A DNA stretch of 64,000 nucleotides from NCBI GenBank assembly GCA_034933245.1, contig JAYFNX010000015.1, positions 6,127 through 70,126 of the forward strand, read 5' to 3'. Positions within the stretch are counted from its first letter, which is position 1. Every line of letters starts with the position of its first letter. The position numbers and the translations under genes are program-made. Origin of the DNA: Candidatus Pelethousia sp. (GTDB lineage Bacteria; Bacillota; Clostridia; Christensenellales; CAG-138). Positions 15,569-22,303 of the stretch are shown piece after piece. The notes beneath the pieces are model-generated. The model was not told where the DNA came from. It ran no database searches and saw only the letters and a list, made by a program, of their open reading frames with translations.

Positions 15569-16249
15569 CTACAAGATATGCCTGTGTTTGAGCGCCTCCC
15601 ACGTTTCATTCGCAATCGCATCCGGGGTGCGGAAAATGCCTTTTTCCATGCACCGGATTACCATAATATCTTCCCTGCGCGCCGCGGCTTCCAGGTATTT
15701 AGACCGGGCGCGTTCCTGAATCCCTTGGGAAGCCTCGTATACATCTTTTTCGCACGCCAAATATACCCGGCGACCCTTTTTTAAAACGTTTTCTCCTGCC
15801 TGCTCCGTATCCACATCATAAAAAATAAAAATATCCGCCGGAGGAAGGCCAAAATGGCCGTATTCCAATTCGAAAGTCCAATCGAGGAGATCCGGTTTCC
15901 CCAAGTCGATATCCCGAATGGACTGATAGACACCGTTGCTCAGAACATACCGGTTAATGAGCAGGATGTCCGCCTCTCCATCGGTATAATTTTTCAGGTT
16001 TTCCCACCTATCCAAGGCATACCAAAGAGCCATGGAGCGCCCATCCACCTGGTCCGCCCGCACGCCGCCGCTACCCGAAAGATAGCGGCCTACCTCTGCG
16101 CCGAAATAGCTGCCATATACCGGGTATTCCCGGGTGTCCACCCGCATGCCCGCCTCCCGGCACCGCTGGGCTAATCGGGCAAACTGCACGCTTTTGCCGC
16201 TGCCGTCAATCCCTTCGATGGCAATTACCCTCGTTTTCGTTTCGTTCAT
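15569..16249 (-). CDS. tmk: thymidylate kinase-family protein
   Basis: IAIEGIDGSGKS P-loop, YALDR, INRYVLSN, LPPAD; start at MNETK overlapping the hflX stop. Confidence 0.8.
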   Translation of the reverse strand: MNETKTRVIAIEGIDGSGKSVQFARLAQRCREAGMRVDTREYPVYGSYFGAEVGRYLSGSGGVRADQVDGRSMALWYALDRWENLKNYTDGEADILLINRYVLSNGVYQSIRDIDLGKPDLLDWTFELEYGHFGLPPADIFIFYDVDTEQAGENVLKKGRRVYLACEKDVYEASQGIQERARSKYLEAAARREDIMVIRCMEKGIFRTPDAIANETWEALKHRHIL

Positions 16250-18030
16250 ATTTGCCCTGCCTCCCCCAGAATGCGCCGCAGACGCCACAGGGTATCCTCC
16301 TCGGCCTGAACGCGAAGCCAGGTGCCGGTTTCGTCGTGGCGTTCCTCCAGAATCCGGGCTTCGTCCCGCAAAATGGTCATGGCCTCATATTTATCATAAG
16401 GTACAAAAACCTCCAGCTCCTTGCGTCCGCTGGAAAGCGCTTGCTCCACCGCCGCCAGAAGCCCTTCTATGCCGGCCCCCGTCAGGGCGCTAATAGCCAA
16501 CCCATCCTGGGGGGGCGGGCCTTGCAGCTTATCCGCCTTATTATAAACCCGGATGCTAGGAATATCGCCGGCTTCCAGTTTGGAGAGCACCTCCTCCACC
16601 ACTTCCCGCTGGCTTTCATAATAATCGGAGGAAACATCGATCACATGGAGAATCAGATCCGCCTGACGCACCTCCTCCAAGGTGGATTGAAATGCCTGGA
16701 TAAGGTCATGGGGGAGCTTGTTGATAAAGCCCACGGTATCGCTTAGGAGCACCAGGGTTCCATTGGGCAAAGCAGTCTGGCGAACCACCGGGTCCAGCGT
16801 GGCGAAAAGCTTATTTTCCGCAAGCACCCCCGCCCCGGTAAGCGCGTTGAGCAGGGTGCTCTTCCCGGCGTTTGTATAGCCCACCAACGCGATTCTCGGC
16901 GTGGTATCCTTCTGCCGACGTTCCCGGCGCAGACCCCGCTGTTTCTCTACGGCCTTGAGTTCTTCTCCCAGCTCATAGATGCGCCTGCGGATGCGCCGCT
17001 TGTCGCTTTCCAGTTTGGTTTCGCCCGGTCCCCGTGCAATGGTACCCGCGCCCTGGCGGGAAAGATCCTTTCCTTGCCCAAAGATGCGGGGCAGTTCATA
17101 TTTTAGCTGCGCAAGCTCTACCTGGAGCTTGCCTTCCCGGCTTTTGGCGTGCCGTGCGAATATATCCAAAATAAGGGCCGTGCGGTCGATGACCCGTACG
17201 CCCGTGATATTTTCCAAATTTCGGGATTGCACCGGACTGAGTTCCTCGTCAAAAATCAACAAATCCGCTTCCAGAGCGCTGGCGGAAAGGGAGAGTTCCT
17301 CCGCTTTCCCACTGCCGATATACGTAGCGTTATCGATTTCTCGCTTGCGCTGGGTAGCCCGGCCAACTACTACGGCGCCGGCGGTAGCCGCCAGTTCCCC
17401 CAATTCCGCCAGGGTGTCGTACCCCGCGTCGTTCTCCAGCCCCACCAGAATGGCCCGCTCCGGCTCCGCTTCGCGAACCTCCTTAGTAGCGCTTTTGAGG
17501 CGGTCGTCAGCAAGATAAATCTCTTGCATTAAAGCCTTTTGCGGGAGCTTATTCGGCCGCAAAGGGCCATAAAGCAGAACTTGCCGGGTTCCGTCTTCCT
17601 CCATTTCCCCTAGATACCCTGCGTAAAAGTTCATGGGTTGGCCTTCCGGGCCCACGCCCAGAGCCGCCATGGCATCCAGGCGCATGGAGCGCAAGGTTCC
17701 CGCATCCACGCTGGAAAGGCGGCCATCCCCATTTGGATGGGTATGGATGCAGCGCACGCCGCAAAGCCTGTCCGCATTGCGCACCAAGCGCATATTGGGC
17801 ATGGATACCTTCCCGCTGTCCCCCACGGACACATCCACCACCCGGCCGTCCCTGGCCACGTATACGGATATCTCCCGGGCAATGGTGCCGGTGAATTCGG
17901 CCATGGCACAGAGCAGTTCTGTGGAAGCGAACACGTTCGCTTCCATGCGCAAGTCATAGAGGGCAGCCATGCGCTCCAGCAAAGCTGCCCGAATTCCTTC
18001 TATTTTTCCGTTTATTTTTTGATTTTCCAT
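16246..18030 (-). CDS. hflX: GTPase HflX, long form with N-terminal extension
   Basis: YIGSGK, LILDIF, EGKLQVELAQL, RGPGETKLE, GYTNAGKST, LFATLD, DTVGFI, NKAD; about 190 extra N-terminal residues. Confidence 0.95.
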   Translation of the reverse strand: MENQKINGKIEGIRAALLERMAALYDLRMEANVFASTELLCAMAEFTGTIAREISVYVARDGRVVDVSVGDSGKVSMPNMRLVRNADRLCGVRCIHTHPNGDGRLSSVDAGTLRSMRLDAMAALGVGPEGQPMNFYAGYLGEMEEDGTRQVLLYGPLRPNKLPQKALMQEIYLADDRLKSATKEVREAEPERAILVGLENDAGYDTLAELGELAATAGAVVVGRATQRKREIDNATYIGSGKAEELSLSASALEADLLIFDEELSPVQSRNLENITGVRVIDRTALILDIFARHAKSREGKLQVELAQLKYELPRIFGQGKDLSRQGAGTIARGPGETKLESDKRRIRRRIYELGEELKAVEKQRGLRRERRQKDTTPRIALVGYTNAGKSTLLNALTGAGVLAENKLFATLDPVVRQTALPNGTLVLLSDTVGFINKLPHDLIQAFQSTLEEVRQADLILHVIDVSSDYYESQREVVEEVLSKLEAGDIPSIRVYNKADKLQGPPPQDGLAISALTGAGIEGLLAAVEQALSSGRKELEVFVPYDKYEAMTILRDEARILEERHDETGTWLRVQAEEDTLWRLRRILGEAGQI

Positions 18031-18035
18031 CCGCA

Positions 18036-19895
18036 CTATTCGGCCGGCGTAGAAGCCGGCTTGACATAATTCCGCAAGTAGTTCAAATCCACCCCATAAA
18101 TCAGGCCGCCCCGGGTTCCCACCACCACCATGTTGTTAAACACGGCGGGAGAAGCCTCCACGTTGCTGCCCAGGCTCATCTCGTTAATAATCTCGCCGCT
18201 CTGGCCGTCGACCAGGTGGATGTAGCCGGATTTGTTGCACTGAATGAGATACCCTTTGCCCGCGGTATCATATACCGCCACCGGGGAAGACCAAGGATAC
18301 CCCGCAAAGTTGCACTCCCATTTCACGCTCATATCCGCCGTATTAAGGGCCACCAATTTGCCTTTCATGCCTTCCGTCATTGCCACAGGCACAAAGATGA
18401 GCCCTTCCAGGTCATGCTCGCCAATGGCCAATGTGCCTTGCACACCGCCGGATACCTGGTTGGGGGAGCCGATGGTCTGGCAATGGTAATCCGTGTTTTT
18501 AGCCACGATCTCCCCTGTTACCGCATCAATTTTCCAGATGGGGATAACCGCGGTGCTGTTCTCCTTTGCCCGCCAGCCTGGGTGGAAGGAGGTGGAGGTA
18601 TATACATAAGGATGCTTATCCGGCCCCTCCAGCGCAAGCACAGGCGTGCAGTTGGTATCGTCCAGCGTATCCTGCACCCAAACGGCCTTCATGGTGTTTA
18701 GATCCAGGCAGATCATATGGCCGCCGTTATCCGTAAAAATGGCGTGTCCCCGCCATAGGATGGCACTGTCCTCAATGCCCAGCCACCAGCCTTCCGTGCC
18801 ATCCGCCGTGGCTTTGGAAAGGTTTCGGGTTCCCTTATAATGCCACTTCACCGTTTCCGGAGCGATCGAGATCGTGCCCGCGCTCTGGTCATACTGGGTA
18901 TTGAGCTTAATGGTATAGAGGATACCCGATTCGCCGGGATATATGAGCGTATCCGTTTCCGCATCCACCAAGGCCGAACTGTCGAAGTAGGAAAGATCCC
19001 GCAGGGCGAACCCATCCTGGGAGCCGAATTCATAGAGGATCTTCCCATCGATGAGACTGATGATAAAAGCCCGGCTGCTCCCTTTGCCTGCGGTGGGGCT
19101 ATCATCCCCGCTCCCCACATACATGAGGGGATACCCACGCGGGTCCAAAGCGCCGGCGCCTTTAAAGGGGAAGCCCATGTTGATGGGGTCCCGGGTTTTC
19201 TCGCCCGTATACAGGTTCAAGAAATAGATATGCCCATCCATGGTAGCATAAATTATCTCCACCAGATCCGGGTCGTTCTTGGCCGCGTCATAAAGGTTCA
19301 TGATGCGCTTGGTGGCTTCCGGCCATTTTACCAGAAGGGGTTGGCCCGTCCAACCGCAACCCGTCCAACTGCCGCTACCGTACATTTTCGTGAGGCTGCC
19401 CACGGAAAAAGTCCAAGGTTCGCTTCTCTGCCCCGTGAAGTCTACGGTGCCGTAGGCGGCGGAATTTCGGAAATTATTGCCCCGGAAGGTGATCACGCCC
19501 TCCAGTTCCGTATACTTTTCCCCCTCCAGCAGATCGATGGCTTCCGCCCGGTTATAGCTGGCTGTCTGCGCGCCATTTTCCTCAATCGCCTCTTCCAGTC
19601 CAAAGTCGCTGGGGTTCGTGCCATCCACCGGCGCCGGATTAAAGGCAGGCACAGGCGTGGGCGTAGGCTCCGGCGTTTCCTCGGGCTCAAGCGCAGGTGT
19701 TTGTTTATTGAACAGGCCGCCGATCAAACCCGGTTTGCTTTCCTCATCCGAATCGGGCTTAACCGCTACGCAGGATTTAACCACCAGCACCGCCATTGCG
19801 ATAACCGCAAGCAGCAGCACCAAGAGCAAAATAACCCGTCCAACATGCACCCGCACCCGGCGGCGCCTTCTTCGCTTACCCGTTTGAGAACCCAT
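18036..19895 (-). CDS. membrane-anchored PQQ-like beta-propeller protein
   Basis: Basic N-terminus, TM helix, Pro/Glu/Thr linker; TFRGN, GWTGQP, WSSPV and EASPAV repeats typical of PQQ-type propellers. Confidence 0.75.
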   Translation of the reverse strand: MGSQTGKRRRRRRVRVHVGRVILLLVLLLAVIAMAVLVVKSCVAVKPDSDEESKPGLIGGLFNKQTPALEPEETPEPTPTPVPAFNPAPVDGTNPSDFGLEEAIEENGAQTASYNRAEAIDLLEGEKYTELEGVITFRGNNFRNSAAYGTVDFTGQRSEPWTFSVGSLTKMYGSGSWTGCGWTGQPLLVKWPEATKRIMNLYDAAKNDPDLVEIIYATMDGHIYFLNLYTGEKTRDPINMGFPFKGAGALDPRGYPLMYVGSGDDSPTAGKGSSRAFIISLIDGKILYEFGSQDGFALRDLSYFDSSALVDAETDTLIYPGESGILYTIKLNTQYDQSAGTISIAPETVKWHYKGTRNLSKATADGTEGWWLGIEDSAILWRGHAIFTDNGGHMICLDLNTMKAVWVQDTLDDTNCTPVLALEGPDKHPYVYTSTSFHPGWRAKENSTAVIPIWKIDAVTGEIVAKNTDYHCQTIGSPNQVSGGVQGTLAIGEHDLEGLIFVPVAMTEGMKGKLVALNTADMSVKWECNFAGYPWSSPVAVYDTAGKGYLIQCNKSGYIHLVDGQSGEIINEMSLGSNVEASPAVFNNMVVVGTRGGLIYGVDLNYLRNYVKPASTPAE

Positions 19896-19938
19896 TTGTT
19901 TACCTCGTTTTATTGTAGATAATTTCATTGCCTGTTAA

Positions 19939-19967
19939 ATTATACCCCACTTGCATCCATCAGACAA
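19939..19967 (-). promoter_or_regulatory. sigma-A promoter of the propeller-hflX-tmk unit
   Basis: Minus strand TTGTCT-17-TATAAT. Confidence 0.65.
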
Positions 19968-20006
19968 GCGCGCGGGACTCATGTGCCATGAATATTATGT
20001 AAACGT

Positions 20007-20044
20007 ATGCAAAGGGCCTCCGATAAACCGAAGGCCCTTTGCAT
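20007..20044 (-). terminator. hairpin after the small membrane gene
   Basis: ATGCAAAGGGCCT / AGGCCCTTTGCAT inverted repeat. Confidence 0.65.
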
Positions 20045-20100
20045 GGCGCTTATTAAATTTATATTATCCCGTGGGAAGGGATACGAAGAAAAACAGGCCT

Positions 20101-20310
20101 TCAGGCTGCCAGGGAATCATCCATTGTGGAAATATAAAGTGCCCGCCTGCGGCGTTGCGCCTGCCGGCCGGCCTGCCGCATTGCCCGCCGCCGGGCGGCA
20201 AAGGCGCGGCGCCGCCGTTCTTGGGCGGCCTCCCGGAAGGAAAAGGCGCCTAAAAGCCCCAGCAAAATACCGGGAAGCATAAAAGTAAAGAACAGCCCAA
20301 AGTAATTCAT
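20101..20310 (-). CDS. 69-aa single-TM, Arg-rich protein with C-terminal LAA
   Basis: RBS AGGAGG then ATG20310: MNYFGLFFTFMLPGILLGLLGAFSF-REAAQERRRR...DDSLAA; has its own consensus promoter and a terminator. Confidence 0.75.
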   Translation of the reverse strand: MNYFGLFFTFMLPGILLGLLGAFSFREAAQERRRRAFAARRRAMRQAGRQAQRRRRALYISTMDDSLAA

Positions 20311-20391
20311 AAGTATCCTCCTGGGATATTTCAAAGAATTTTTAAGTTTCCAGCATCGTCCTTCAAAGTTTCCTGTGTTCTTATTAGGGCC

Positions 20392-20420
20392 ATTATAATA
20401 TCTTTTTAAGATACTGTCAA
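20392..20420 (-). promoter_or_regulatory. consensus sigma-A promoter whose spacer is a palindromic operator (O1)
   Basis: Minus strand TTGACA-GTATCTTAAAAAGATAT-TATAAT; the 17-bp spacer is GTATCT-N5-AGATAT. Confidence 0.85.
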
Positions 20421-20461
20421 TGCTATTTTTGGCAATTTGTAGATATGTTTTTGATTTCATC

Positions 20462-20490
20462 TTGTTTTTTGTTTCTGTTTGAGATACAAT
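20462..20490 (+). promoter_or_regulatory. repressor promoter overlapped by a second operator (O2)
   Basis: TTGTTT-17-TACAAT; GTTTCT-N5-AGATAC at 20471-20487. Confidence 0.7.
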
Positions 20491-20525
20491 CAACAAGATA
20501 CCTTTGAATTGTTTAAGGAGGCTAT

Positions 20526-21164
20526 ATGAACCGTTTAAAAGAGCTGCGGCGCGCCCATGGGCTTACCCAGGAGGATGTTGCGCAAACCGTAGGGGTGCAA
20601 AAGGCAGCCATTTGTAAATATGAAACGGACCGTGTTTCCATTCCCCCGGATACCCTTATGATTCTATGTGATTTTTTCGGTGTTTCGGCGGATTATATGC
20701 TATGCCGTGCGCAGAGCGCCGGCCATCCTCTTTCTAAAACAACGGCTTCTCTTTCCGGGCTTTTTCTTCCCAACGATGATGCGGTGGTTGGCGTGCCGCT
20801 TGTAGGCCGGGTGCATGCGGGGCTCCCCATGCTCGCGAATGAAAACATAACCGAATATGTTCCCCTTCCCGCCGCAGATGTTCGCGCCGGGGATTACTTC
20901 TATATGGAAGTAGAAGGGGATTGTATGATAGGCGCATGCATCCCGGAAGGCGCGCTTGTGCTTGTGCGTATACAGGACCGTGTGGAAAACGGCCAGATCG
21001 CCGTGGTACGCTTGGGGGACGAGGTGCTTCTGCGCAAGGTGAAATGGGTAAGCGGGCAACTGGTGCTCATTCCGGCCAACACCCGCTATGAACCCATCAT
21101 TGTGGCCGGAGGGGATGTGCAGATTATCGGGCGGGTCGTAGAAGTTCGCATCCGGGGGCTATGA
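20526..21164 (+). CDS. XRE-HTH / peptidase S24 (LexA/CI-like) repressor with atypical catalytic residues
   Basis: RLKELRR..GLTQEDVA...YE HTH; VPLVGRVHAGLP (Ala-Gly site); GDCM in place of GDSM; EVLLRK in place of E.TVKR; L.PAN.RYEPI. Confidence 0.9.
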   Translation: MNRLKELRRAHGLTQEDVAQTVGVQKAAICKYETDRVSIPPDTLMILCDFFGVSADYMLCRAQSAGHPLSKTTASLSGLFLPNDDAVVGVPLVGRVHAGLPMLANENITEYVPLPAADVRAGDYFYMEVEGDCMIGACIPEGALVLVRIQDRVENGQIAVVRLGDEVLLRKVKWVSGQLVLIPANTRYEPIIVAGGDVQIIGRVVEVRIRGL

Positions 21165-21217
21165 GAATGATTTCCCTTGTGATATGCTACTATTATCAAC
21201 TATTTTGAGGTGTGAGA

Positions 21218-22303
21218 ATGAGCAAGGTTTTATTTGCCCCCTTGGGGTTTACCCGCTATGATATTGACCAAACCCTCCCTGCCCGTTTTGAACGGCTTTT
21301 GAAAAAGAGCGAAATTGCGGACATGGTGCAGGGCAAAACAGTGGCCGTTAAAATCCATGTGGGTGACAGGATGACGTATTCTACAATCCCCCCCATTTTT
21401 CTGCGCATTCTGGTCGGGTTTATAAGGGATCATGGCGGAGATTGCTTCGTATGCGACCATGCCGTGGCCGAGCGACAGCCTCAAAACCGGGGTTACACCG
21501 AATCCATCCTGGGTTGCCCGGTTCTGGATGACTGTGGCCACCTGCAAAAATATTATTATACGAAGGAAGTGGATTTTCGTTCTTTCCGCCATGTGGACAT
21601 TGCGGGCTATATTCACGATGCCGATGTTCTCATCGACTTCTCGCACGTGAAAGGCCATGGGTGCTGTGCCTATGGCGGCGCCTGCAAAAACATTGCCATG
21701 GGATGTGTTACAACCCGCACGCGCCAGGAGCAGCATTCTTTGGAGGGAGGCCTCATATGGGAGGAAGATAAATGCGTGCACTGCAATGCCTGTGTGGAAG
21801 GCTGTAACCACCATGCCAACGGCTTCGCGGAGGACGGGCAATATCGGGTGGATTATCACAACTGCACCCTTTGCCGGCATTGTCTTAAGGTGTGTCCTAC
21901 AGGCGCTATTTCCGCCACGGATCATAATTATGCCGATTTTCAGCAAGGCTTGGCGCTCTGCACCAAAACGGTGCTGGATACCTTTGCTCCCGGCCACGTA
22001 TATTACCTAAACCTCCTCACGCAAATTACCATCCTATGTGACTGTTGGGGGCTCACGACCCCGGGGTTGGTTCCGGATATCGGCCTGATGGGCTCCACGG
22101 ATATTGTCTCCATCGAGCAGGCCTCGTTGGATGCCATCAAGGTGGAAAACCTGATCCCCGCGGGCCTTCCCCAAGGTTTTCCGCTGGGTGACCATGGCCA
22201 TCTCTTCGAGCGTATTCATGGCAAAGATCCCTTTGTGCAAATTGCCATGCTGGAAAAATACGGTTTGGGCACCAGCGCATATGATCTAGTGGAAATAAAG
22301 TAG
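21218..22303 (+). CDS. DUF362 domain protein with 2[4Fe-4S] ferredoxin insert
   Basis: VAVKIHVG, SHVKGH, YGGACKNIAMGC, CxxCxxCxxxC twice, CDC, DIG..STDIVSIEQAS. Confidence 0.85.
   Translation: MSKVLFAPLGFTRYDIDQTLPARFERLLKKSEIADMVQGKTVAVKIHVGDRMTYSTIPPIFLRILVGFIRDHGGDCFVCDHAVAERQPQNRGYTESILGCPVLDDCGHLQKYYYTKEVDFRSFRHVDIAGYIHDADVLIDFSHVKGHGCCAYGGACKNIAMGCVTTRTRQEQHSLEGGLIWEEDKCVHCNACVEGCNHHANGFAEDGQYRVDYHNCTLCRHCLKVCPTGAISATDHNYADFQQGLALCTKTVLDTFAPGHVYYLNLLTQITILCDCWGLTTPGLVPDIGLMGSTDIVSIEQASLDAIKVENLIPAGLPQGFPLGDHGHLFERIHGKDPFVQIAMLEKYGLGTSAYDLVEIK

Follow-up and report, generated by a model that had tools for sequence, protein, structure and literature searches.

Small membrane division inhibitors that share no mutual homology are encoded divergently from SOS repressors, and small, lineage-restricted inhibitors of division form a group "more of which are likely undiscovered" (PMC13689564; this and the other PMC sources are cited from excerpts). 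YneA works via its membrane helix on FtsW (PMC13396833), and LexA-like proteins have ClpXP C-degrons at the cleavage site (PMC7101444). In the UmuDAb–DdrR system, DdrR inhibits division and the UmuDAb regulon includes error-prone polymerases; a non-cleavable UmuDAb blocks the response, which indicates that UmuDAb is cleaved (PMC13689564). Cleavage of IrvR can be RecA-independent (PMC7101444), and FddR is a phage-type repressor co-opted in a damage response (PMC13148647). The excerpts on these related regulators give a Ser–Lys pair and an Ala–Gly bond as the defining residues (PMC13148647; PMC7101444). A comparable locus lies in a 64,000-nucleotide stretch of a Candidatus Pelethousia genome (G000; 2.5 Mb, 53% G+C; the window, C15:6127-70126), where the gene of a LexA-like repressor stands back to back with that of a 69-amino-acid (aa) membrane protein.

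The pair may constitute an auxiliary switch of the DNA-damage type that releases a short-lived membrane effector, probably an inhibitor of division or of the envelope, a reading to which we give about even odds. The interpretation offered in a preliminary description of this DNA is partly supported: it was right in outline, and the observation beneath it is confirmed and extended.

A divergent gene pair with three operators

The two genes are separated by 215 bp of 31% G+C (20311-20525; Table 1). A scan of positions 19900-21300 yielded seven promoter-like sites (2.2 ± 1.5 in shuffles), and a single one matches at 12/12 positions, with TTGACA, a 17-nt spacer and TATAAT on the minus strand in front of the small gene. 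The whole spacer is the palindrome O1, as the preliminary description had stated. Its second claim, that another palindrome overlaps the repressor's own promoter, also holds, because O2 shares three bases with a TACAAT −10 hexamer lying 36 nt upstream of the repressor start codon. Both copies are present, but a third, O3, had been missed; it overlaps the Shine–Dalgarno sequence of the small gene. In the whole 2.5-Mb genome, the motif GTWTCT-N5-AGAWAC, for which a genome-wide scan had been proposed, occurs at two sites, O2 and one inside an open reading frame (ORF) on contig C13; the sole TATCT-N5-AGATA site is at O1. The 5′ leader of the small gene folds no better than shuffles (z = 0.16).

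Among 60 relatives searched, 22 other genomes encode full-length repressor orthologues (51–82% identity), all in the same family of uncultured Christensenellales; matches in other families are weak (30–35% identity). The small protein is likewise found in 17 of the 36 genomes of its own family versus none of 24 from other families of the order. At 20 of the 23 orthologous loci the small ORF lies divergently upstream, the remaining three being one locus with only 79 nt of upstream sequence and two without a small ORF. A site equivalent to O3 lies just upstream of the small-gene start in most orthologous regions, and the GAAC-N4-GTTC LexA box is absent from all 23 intergenic regions, in agreement with the earlier proposal of a non-canonical LexA-like regulator that uses its own operator and not the SOS box.

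For a wider comparison, one genome per species was taken, and the best 80 of 125 loci that encode a relative were kept; the 77 with at least 450 nt of upstream sequence are the denominator for promoter and small-ORF counts. Carriers of the 80 loci are labelled Christensenellaceae, Candidatus Pelethousia, Clostridia and similar. The small ORF is present at 70 of the 77 loci. The arrangement of −35, 17-nt operator and −10 recurs at 69 (with TTGACA in 55 and TATAAT in 66 of these), and on the repressor side a half-site fused to the −10 (RGAWAC plus two bases, mostly RGATACAAT) recurs at 65. Operator matches per locus number three in 36, two in 20, one in 10 and four in 2 of the 68 loci that fit a strict small-ORF pattern.

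Dimers of the repressor, which combines a helix-turn-helix (HTH) domain with an S24 fold, would bind 17-bp palindromes of the form GTWTCY-N5-RGAWAC at three places. Because these operators lie in the promoter spacer, at the repressor's own −10 and beside or on the ribosome-binding site, the small gene would be fully off and the repressor self-limited. This predicted switch logic is well supported by sequence comparison, and three operators around a consensus promoter would make a compact, portable device that is tight when off and strong when on.

Judged from the genomes searched, the module has been inherited vertically as a chromosomal switch within a single family of uncultured Christensenellales. 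The gene pair adjoins a beta-propeller protein gene and hflX at a syntenic chromosomal place in several genera, and neither phage nor integrase families are found over 3.7-37 kb (16 ORFs of at least 150 aa plus the six nearest genes), which bears out the preliminary statement that no such genes lie nearby and argues that the pair is not a prophage cI/cro remnant. It is accordingly very improbable that the locus is a domesticated remnant of prophage immunity, in which a cI-type repressor and a small membrane exclusion or lysis protein would have no host function. The best PHROG match of the repressor is the phage transcriptional repressor family phrog_4 (E = 4.3e-37), and the same genome has true prophage cI-type paralogues on contigs C6 (beside an integrase at the tmRNA gene) and C44; however, the chromosomal place is syntenic, phage genes are absent around it, the small protein has no PHROG match, and the pair, with both its genes under purifying selection, is shared by at least 80 species.

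Table 1. Positions of the switch components and adjoining features in the window
Feature	Position	Strand	Remarks
Small membrane protein gene, 69 aa	20101..20310	-	translation; orthologues divergent from repressor
Small-gene promoter	20392..20420	-	-35 TTGACA 20415-20420, O1 spacer, -10 TATAAT 20392-20397
Operator O1 GTATCTTAAAAAGATAT	20398-20414		17-bp palindrome, entire promoter spacer
Operator O2 GTTTCTGTTTGAGATAC	20471-20487		palindrome sharing 3 bases with repressor -10
Operator O3 GTATCCTCCTGGGATAT	20313-20329		third palindrome copy; overlaps Shine–Dalgarno sequence 20316-20322
Repressor promoter	20462..20490	+	-35 TTGTTT 20462-20467, -10 TACAAT 20485-20490; hexamers read by eye
Repressor gene, 212 aa	20526..21164	+	HTH_3 residues 4-57, linker, S24-fold domain 91-205
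Repressor codon, His97	20814-20816	+	
Repressor codons, Ala98-Gly99	20817-20822	+	
Repressor codon, Cys133	20922-20924	+	
Repressor codon, Arg170	21033-21035	+	
Hairpin, 16-bp stem	~20007-20044	-	RNA fold of 19985-20104; downstream of small gene, no U-tract
HflX homologue gene	16246-18036	-	596 aa
Beta-propeller protein gene	18036-19928	-	630 aa

The altered active site of the repressor

The repressor matches HTH_3 (E = 4.4e-12) and, over profile positions 1–116 of 116, Peptidase_S24 (PF00717; E = 7.8e-27) in Pfam. Its AlphaFold2 model has a mean predicted local distance difference test score (pLDDT) of 85.6, and the best Foldseek matches of the C-terminal domain are LexA C-terminal domains (target TM-score 0.84–0.89, root-mean-square deviation ~2 Å). 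The canonical LexA model TIGR00498 scores 92.6 bits, under its cut-off of 110.95, and only in the C-terminal domain; the N-terminal domain is HTH_3 and not the winged-helix LexA_DNA_bind. In an alignment with the PDB sequence of M. tuberculosis LexA, the positions of the catalytic Ser and Lys are taken by Cys133 and Arg170, so that the Ser–Lys dyad is missing from this repressor, whereas the other three S24 proteins of the genome keep it. The label "LexA-like" given previously is thus apt for the S24/LexA fold and the Ala–Gly site, but the protein is not an ordinary Ser/Lys S24 protein, having Cys133, Arg170 and His97 instead.

These features are strongly conserved. Ala98-Gly99 is invariant in 23/23 orthologues, VHAG is found at all 80 species loci, and the flanks of the cleavage site (GRVHAGxP) are invariant. 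Cys occupies the nucleophile position at 80/80 loci, and Arg the base position at all of them as well (74 by pattern and 6 by reading). A second Cys stands five residues after Cys133 in this genus (GDCM[IV]GAC, 20922-20939; L006-L012); it is absent in other genera.

A census of S24 residues was made on 124 domains from the 150 best representatives at 50% identity. It contains Ser/Lys in 111, Cys/Arg in 5, Ser/Arg in 3, Cys with the base position missing in 2, and Cys/Lys, Ala/Arg and Gly/Lys in one each. His precedes Ala-Gly in 8 of 9 Arg-bearing rows versus 4 of 113 Lys-bearing rows (Fisher p = 4e-9 by row and 4e-6 over six lineages, values that are rough because the rows are related). In a second sample of 120 proteins around P0175 (121 scored rows, one without the base position), His, Cys and Arg occur together in 7 rows, and His occurs in none of the 113 Ser/Lys rows. 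The Cys/Arg rows fall into two small clades in a tree of 121 S24 domains, the second clade with the His/Cys/Arg set being distant from the first; the deeper nodes are weak and do not fix the number of origins of Cys/Arg. A metagenome scan with P0280, from the second clade, returned no close relative (best 37% identity). The literature consulted, which did not cover the older work on LexA S119/K156 mutants, contains no Cys or Arg variant of the S24 dyad.

As the three changes travel together while the Ala–Gly bond is kept, we read the cleavage site as altered but probably still working. Removal of the repressor would then most likely proceed by cleavage at the retained Ala98-Gly99 bond, with a chemistry unlike that of LexA, in which Cys133 would be the nucleophile, Arg170 would stand in for the Lys base, and His97 would lie beside the scissile bond. 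More specifically, the repressor may be an undescribed LexA/cI variant, a cysteine-type and possibly redox-gated self-cleaver with a Cys nucleophile, an Arg and a His from the cleavage strand; this proposal is tentative and clearly short of an even chance.

The main rival to an altered but working cleavage site is a thiol-sensing pseudo-peptidase. Here the S24 fold would not cleave; instead, Cys133, kept in the thiolate form by Arg170 and with His97 nearby, would sense oxidants, electrophiles or a metal and release the DNA, and the small protein would serve a strict anaerobe as an effector of oxygen or thiol stress. Replacement of the catalytic Ser/Lys by Cys/Arg in 80/80 species, the co-occurrence of His, Cys and Arg in two clades and the second Cys of this genus are consistent with such a sensor, and a reactive Cys beside an Arg is typical of peroxide-reactive thiols. 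However, a non-cleaving sensor would have no need of the invariant Ala–Gly and its flanks, the second Cys is not kept outside the genus, and the additional target (see below) is a translesion polymerase cassette bearing a LexA box and not a redox gene. We consider this explanation unlikely, at about one chance in five.

The swap of all three residues, found in two clades and at least 80 species, is a natural experiment on the Ser–Lys mechanism: either self-cleavage proceeds by another chemistry, or what was a protease fold now serves as a sensor. If the repressor is indeed a cysteine-type self-cleaver, a damage-like response and a proteolytically timed membrane checkpoint would be tied to thiol state in strict anaerobes.

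The small membrane protein and its putative action

Translation of the small ORF gives the 69-aa product described earlier, which begins with MNYFG, continues with a hydrophobic helix, and has a tail with 14 Arg that ends in DDSLAA. In the predicted layout, residues 1–5 are outside and the membrane helix spans residues ~6–24, followed by the Arg-rich tail, an LYISTM motif and the C-terminal LAA. Met1, Gly5, Pro13, Gly14 and Gly18 are invariant in a 20-row alignment. Among 48 sequences starting with MNYFG, the invariant residues are encoded by 2–4 synonymous codons each (GGA 18, GGC 15, GGT 14 and GGG 1 for Gly5; CCC 24, CCG 23 and CCT 1 for Pro13), and this variation shows that the small ORF is a true gene under protein-level selection. 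Length is 55–75 aa in most species. The protein has no match in Pfam, NCBIfam, PADLOC or PHROGs, a look-alike search of the Atlas returned unnamed clusters only, and its 120 database relatives are all unnamed or "hypothetical", none with a Pfam family. A 292-nt contig identical to 20045-20336 (depth 30) covers the small ORF and little else; its library, labelled metatranscriptomic, is flagged as probably DNA, and contigs as such are evidence of neither transcription nor transcript ends. Two RNA libraries gave coverage of the DUF362 gene only.

None of 49 sequences starting with MNY has a charged residue in the first 22 positions, and beyond these the median net charge is +8, so that the positive-inside rule predicts a cytoplasmic tail. 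AlphaFold2 renders the whole chain as one helix (mean pLDDT 72.6), a model from which the state of the tail is not readable. Forms of 39–42 aa, found in five species, have no tail and keep the helix, which points to the membrane helix as the effector part.

The tail itself has two recurrent elements. A motif L[YF][VIF]x[DSTNC][LMIFV] lies 7–23 residues from the end in 65 of 70 species loci, and a C-terminal Ala-Ala is found in 62 of 70. The same pair ends 86 of the 120 database relatives, where the third-last residue varies (RAA 30, KAA 14, NAA 8 and others). Conservation of the gene pair and of its LAA end had been proposed as a check; the pair is conserved (70/77), and of the end the conserved part is AA. 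RecA, ClpX, ClpP and FtsH genes are present in this genome, and its own transfer-messenger RNA (tmRNA) tag, GKSEFALAA, ends in ALAA.

Once the strong promoter is freed, a burst of the 55–75-aa single-pass protein would be made, its N-terminus facing outward and its basic tail facing the cytoplasm, and the conserved helix would act, probably by blocking cell division or envelope synthesis; this target is proposed because SOS-type small membrane inhibitors act in this manner. In recovery, the tail, LY[VI]x[DST][LM]-x(3-13)-Ala-Ala, which resembles the tmRNA tag (ALAA), may permit quick clearance by ClpXP or FtsH. A large group of uncultured gut Clostridia, for which we know of no division inhibitor, thus gains a candidate checkpoint or effector protein whose timer is predicted to be built in. 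A complex prediction of FtsW from G001 (30-row alignment) with its cognate small protein gave a score of 0.00, which is uninformative either way; the relative's FtsW was modelled because the gene of the G000 dcw cluster, an FtsW/SpoVE-type SEDS gene flanked by murD and a murA-like gene, is split by a contig break between the end of C25 and the start of C28.

With the same switch logic, the small protein could instead be a membrane-damaging toxin or a dormancy peptide, for which the LexA-controlled TisB and DinQ of E. coli are the model. Its short hydrophobic helix with small-residue spacing (G14-x3-G18), the extremely strong and fully occluded promoter, the degron-like tail and the lack of any known family would all suit a toxin. 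However, residues 1–18 hardly vary between genera, a pattern that speaks for a specific partner and not for bulk action on the membrane, and neither an antisense RNA nor a type I antitoxin feature was noticed, although no RNA-family search was made. A toxin therefore seems improbable to us, roughly a one-in-five prospect, beside a specific division inhibitor.

The cytoplasmic tail could also feed back on the repressor. Its Ala-Ala end would bind the altered active site and hold the repressor at the membrane, giving a bistable switch tuned by proteolysis. The tail does end like the N-terminal product of LexA-type cleavage (...AA), the active site is altered, and the genes travel together at 70 of 77 species loci. 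Against such a loop, species with tail-less 39–42-aa forms keep the same repressor, and the His/Cys/Arg repressor is still encoded in G022 and G028, which lack the small gene, so that the loop appears highly unlikely.

Regulon, genome setting and comparison with known systems

A position-weight scan of G000 for operator sites identified one further operator placed in a promoter, ATTTCCTGATGGGAAAC, inside TTGATA-17-TATAAT on contig C51 between a SRAP gene and a divergent gene of an IMS-family (Y-family) polymerase. The switch had been called stand-alone; its regulon does appear small and mostly local, but the operator is also present in the promoter of this polymerase cassette. The remaining high-scoring sites of G000 are inside ORFs or at a prophage end (C6:31680). 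The orthologous cassette of G003 has the same operator together with a perfect LexA box, GAACATCTGTTC, and the polymerase of G022, from another genus, has two operator sites and no LexA box; perfect LexA boxes are found in 8 of 30 polymerase loci. The C51 cassette (C51:7236-9435, L059) comprises a YedK-like SRAP gene, the divergent polymerase gene and an overlapping, unassigned 99-aa ORF after the latter; in its promoter the operator is accompanied by a LexA box in degenerate form, AAACAATCGTTC. The cassette may be mobile, given the patchy distribution of close polymerase orthologues among relatives and the presence of three copies in G014.

A stress signal would remove the repressor. A signal of the DNA-damage type is the most likely one, because the same operator is present at the Y-family polymerase/SRAP promoter, in one genome together with the perfect LexA box. 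LexA_DNA_bind was not found in 8 of 41 genomes of the family, and five of these eight carry the repressor (G009, G019, G021, G022 and G028; 80–99% complete). In genomes in which no canonical LexA was found, this regulator may therefore control translesion synthesis.

Several observations weigh against a damage-type switch with a short-lived effector. The operator occurs in 3 of 30 polymerase loci, and these make up the whole of the link to DNA damage, which is an indirect one. Outside the locus, the genome-wide operator pattern is not above the reversed control (4 versus 7 in G000, and alike over 41 genomes), and no further repair gene in the LexA-less G022 has an operator site; its other intergenic sites, besides those at the repressor promoter and the polymerase, lie beside an IclR regulator and unassigned ORFs. 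As neither genome-wide enrichment nor another G022 repair gene is seen, the regulon, as predicted from operator sites, is small and mostly local. In addition, the small gene is missing beside the repressor in G022, in G028 and at 7 of 77 species loci, the Ala-Ala end is missing in 8 of 70 small proteins and the whole tail in 5 of 70, and all 80 carriers are uncultured metagenome-assembled genomes. The positive-inside rule is the sole basis for a cytoplasmic tail. Self-cleavage may have been lost, because the Ser/Lys dyad is absent, and in Ser/Lys peptidase structures the residue preceding P1 turns its side chain away from the nucleophile, which weakens the case for His97 as a base.

The neighbours of the pair are all housekeeping genes, among them those of RecO, Era, PhoH, HflX, DUF362, Fe-ADH, GalE and GalK (Pfam). 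The HflX homologue has ~200 extra N-terminal residues containing H-T-H-P-N-G-D-G-R-L-S-S-V-D, which by eye resembles a JAMM/MPN metalloprotease motif, but a search of Pfam gave no match to this domain at E <= 0.01. The 630-aa protein between HflX and the small gene combines an Arg-rich N-terminus and a single membrane helix with a PQQ-like beta-propeller at its C-terminal end, and its gene stays next to the switch across genera. The terminator previously placed after the small gene corresponds to a strong 16-bp hairpin (Table 1), a possible terminator that lacks a U-tract; a terminator scan returned 0 sites.

The canonical LexA of the same genome is encoded on C16, and two phage-type S24 paralogues are encoded on C44 and C6. 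Opposite the canonical lexA gene (C16:10259-11337, L060) lies no small membrane protein gene but a Cys-rich, acidic ORF with no membrane helix, and the region upstream of lexA contains only a degenerate box, AAACATTTGTAC. On C6 (C6:30744-33564), smpB and the tmRNA gene are followed by a 338-aa ORF, tyrosine-recombinase-like by eye, and a cI-type HTH–S24 repressor with Ser/Lys; this region looks like a prophage or integrative element located at the tmRNA gene. The C-terminal half of the C44 paralogue is nearly identical to that of the C6 repressor.

The closest described systems are lexA with yneA (Bacillus, Listeria), sosA (Staphylococcus), sidA (Caulobacter), divS or chiZ. There as here, a self-regulated S24-fold repressor stands back to back with a small single-pass protein, the effector has no homologues elsewhere, and the operator lies in the shared control region. 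The present effector, a small single-pass protein with one N-terminal hydrophobic helix encoded divergently from the repressor, has the layout of the YneA/SosA/SidA class, a class that is itself defined by function. In contrast to these systems, the repressor described here exists alongside a canonical LexA (C16) as a second regulator; its HTH is of the XRE type, its operator is a different one, it has Cys/Arg/His instead of Ser/Lys, and three operators surround a consensus promoter. The likeness to yneA and sosA drawn in the preliminary description accordingly extends to the divergent layout but not to the tail: the C-terminal parts of YneA and SosA are outside, whereas the present effector is predicted to have a cytoplasmic C-terminus ending in Ala-Ala. 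Both YneA and SosA are removed by extracellular proteases. As described in the excerpted sources, proteolytic turnover is part of recovery in the lexA–yneA/sosA class (PMC13689564; PMC13396833; PMC6051672; PMC6851548), as it may be here.

UmuDAb–DdrR of Acinetobacter is a further parallel, in that a non-LexA S24 regulator is encoded divergently from a small, lineage-restricted protein, which in the present case is a putative inhibitor (PMC13689564). However, DdrR is predicted to be cytosolic and is also a co-repressor, whereas the effector described here is a membrane protein, and UmuDAb replaces LexA in a genus without it, whereas the repressor described here is second to a canonical LexA (PMC13689564). 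HdiR and IrvR (Streptococcus, Lactococcus) and FddR (Francisella) have the same combination of HTH_3 and Peptidase_S24, an Ala–Gly site and local regulons, but keep the Ser–Lys dyad, stated to be required or conserved (PMC7101444; PMC13148647), where the present repressor has Cys/Arg. None of the three is described, in the excerpts of these papers, with a divergent small membrane protein bearing an ssrA-like end.

The tail of the effector resembles the ssrA/tmRNA degron in its conserved terminal Ala-Ala-COOH, with variable preceding residues and a host tag that ends in ALAA. ClpX C-motif 1 has the form ...LAA-COOH and is also represented by RseA(1-108) and by the N-terminal fragment of LexA, which ends in VAA. 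Unlike the ssrA tag and ends exposed by cleavage, the Ala-Ala of this protein is encoded in the gene itself, as a candidate degron.

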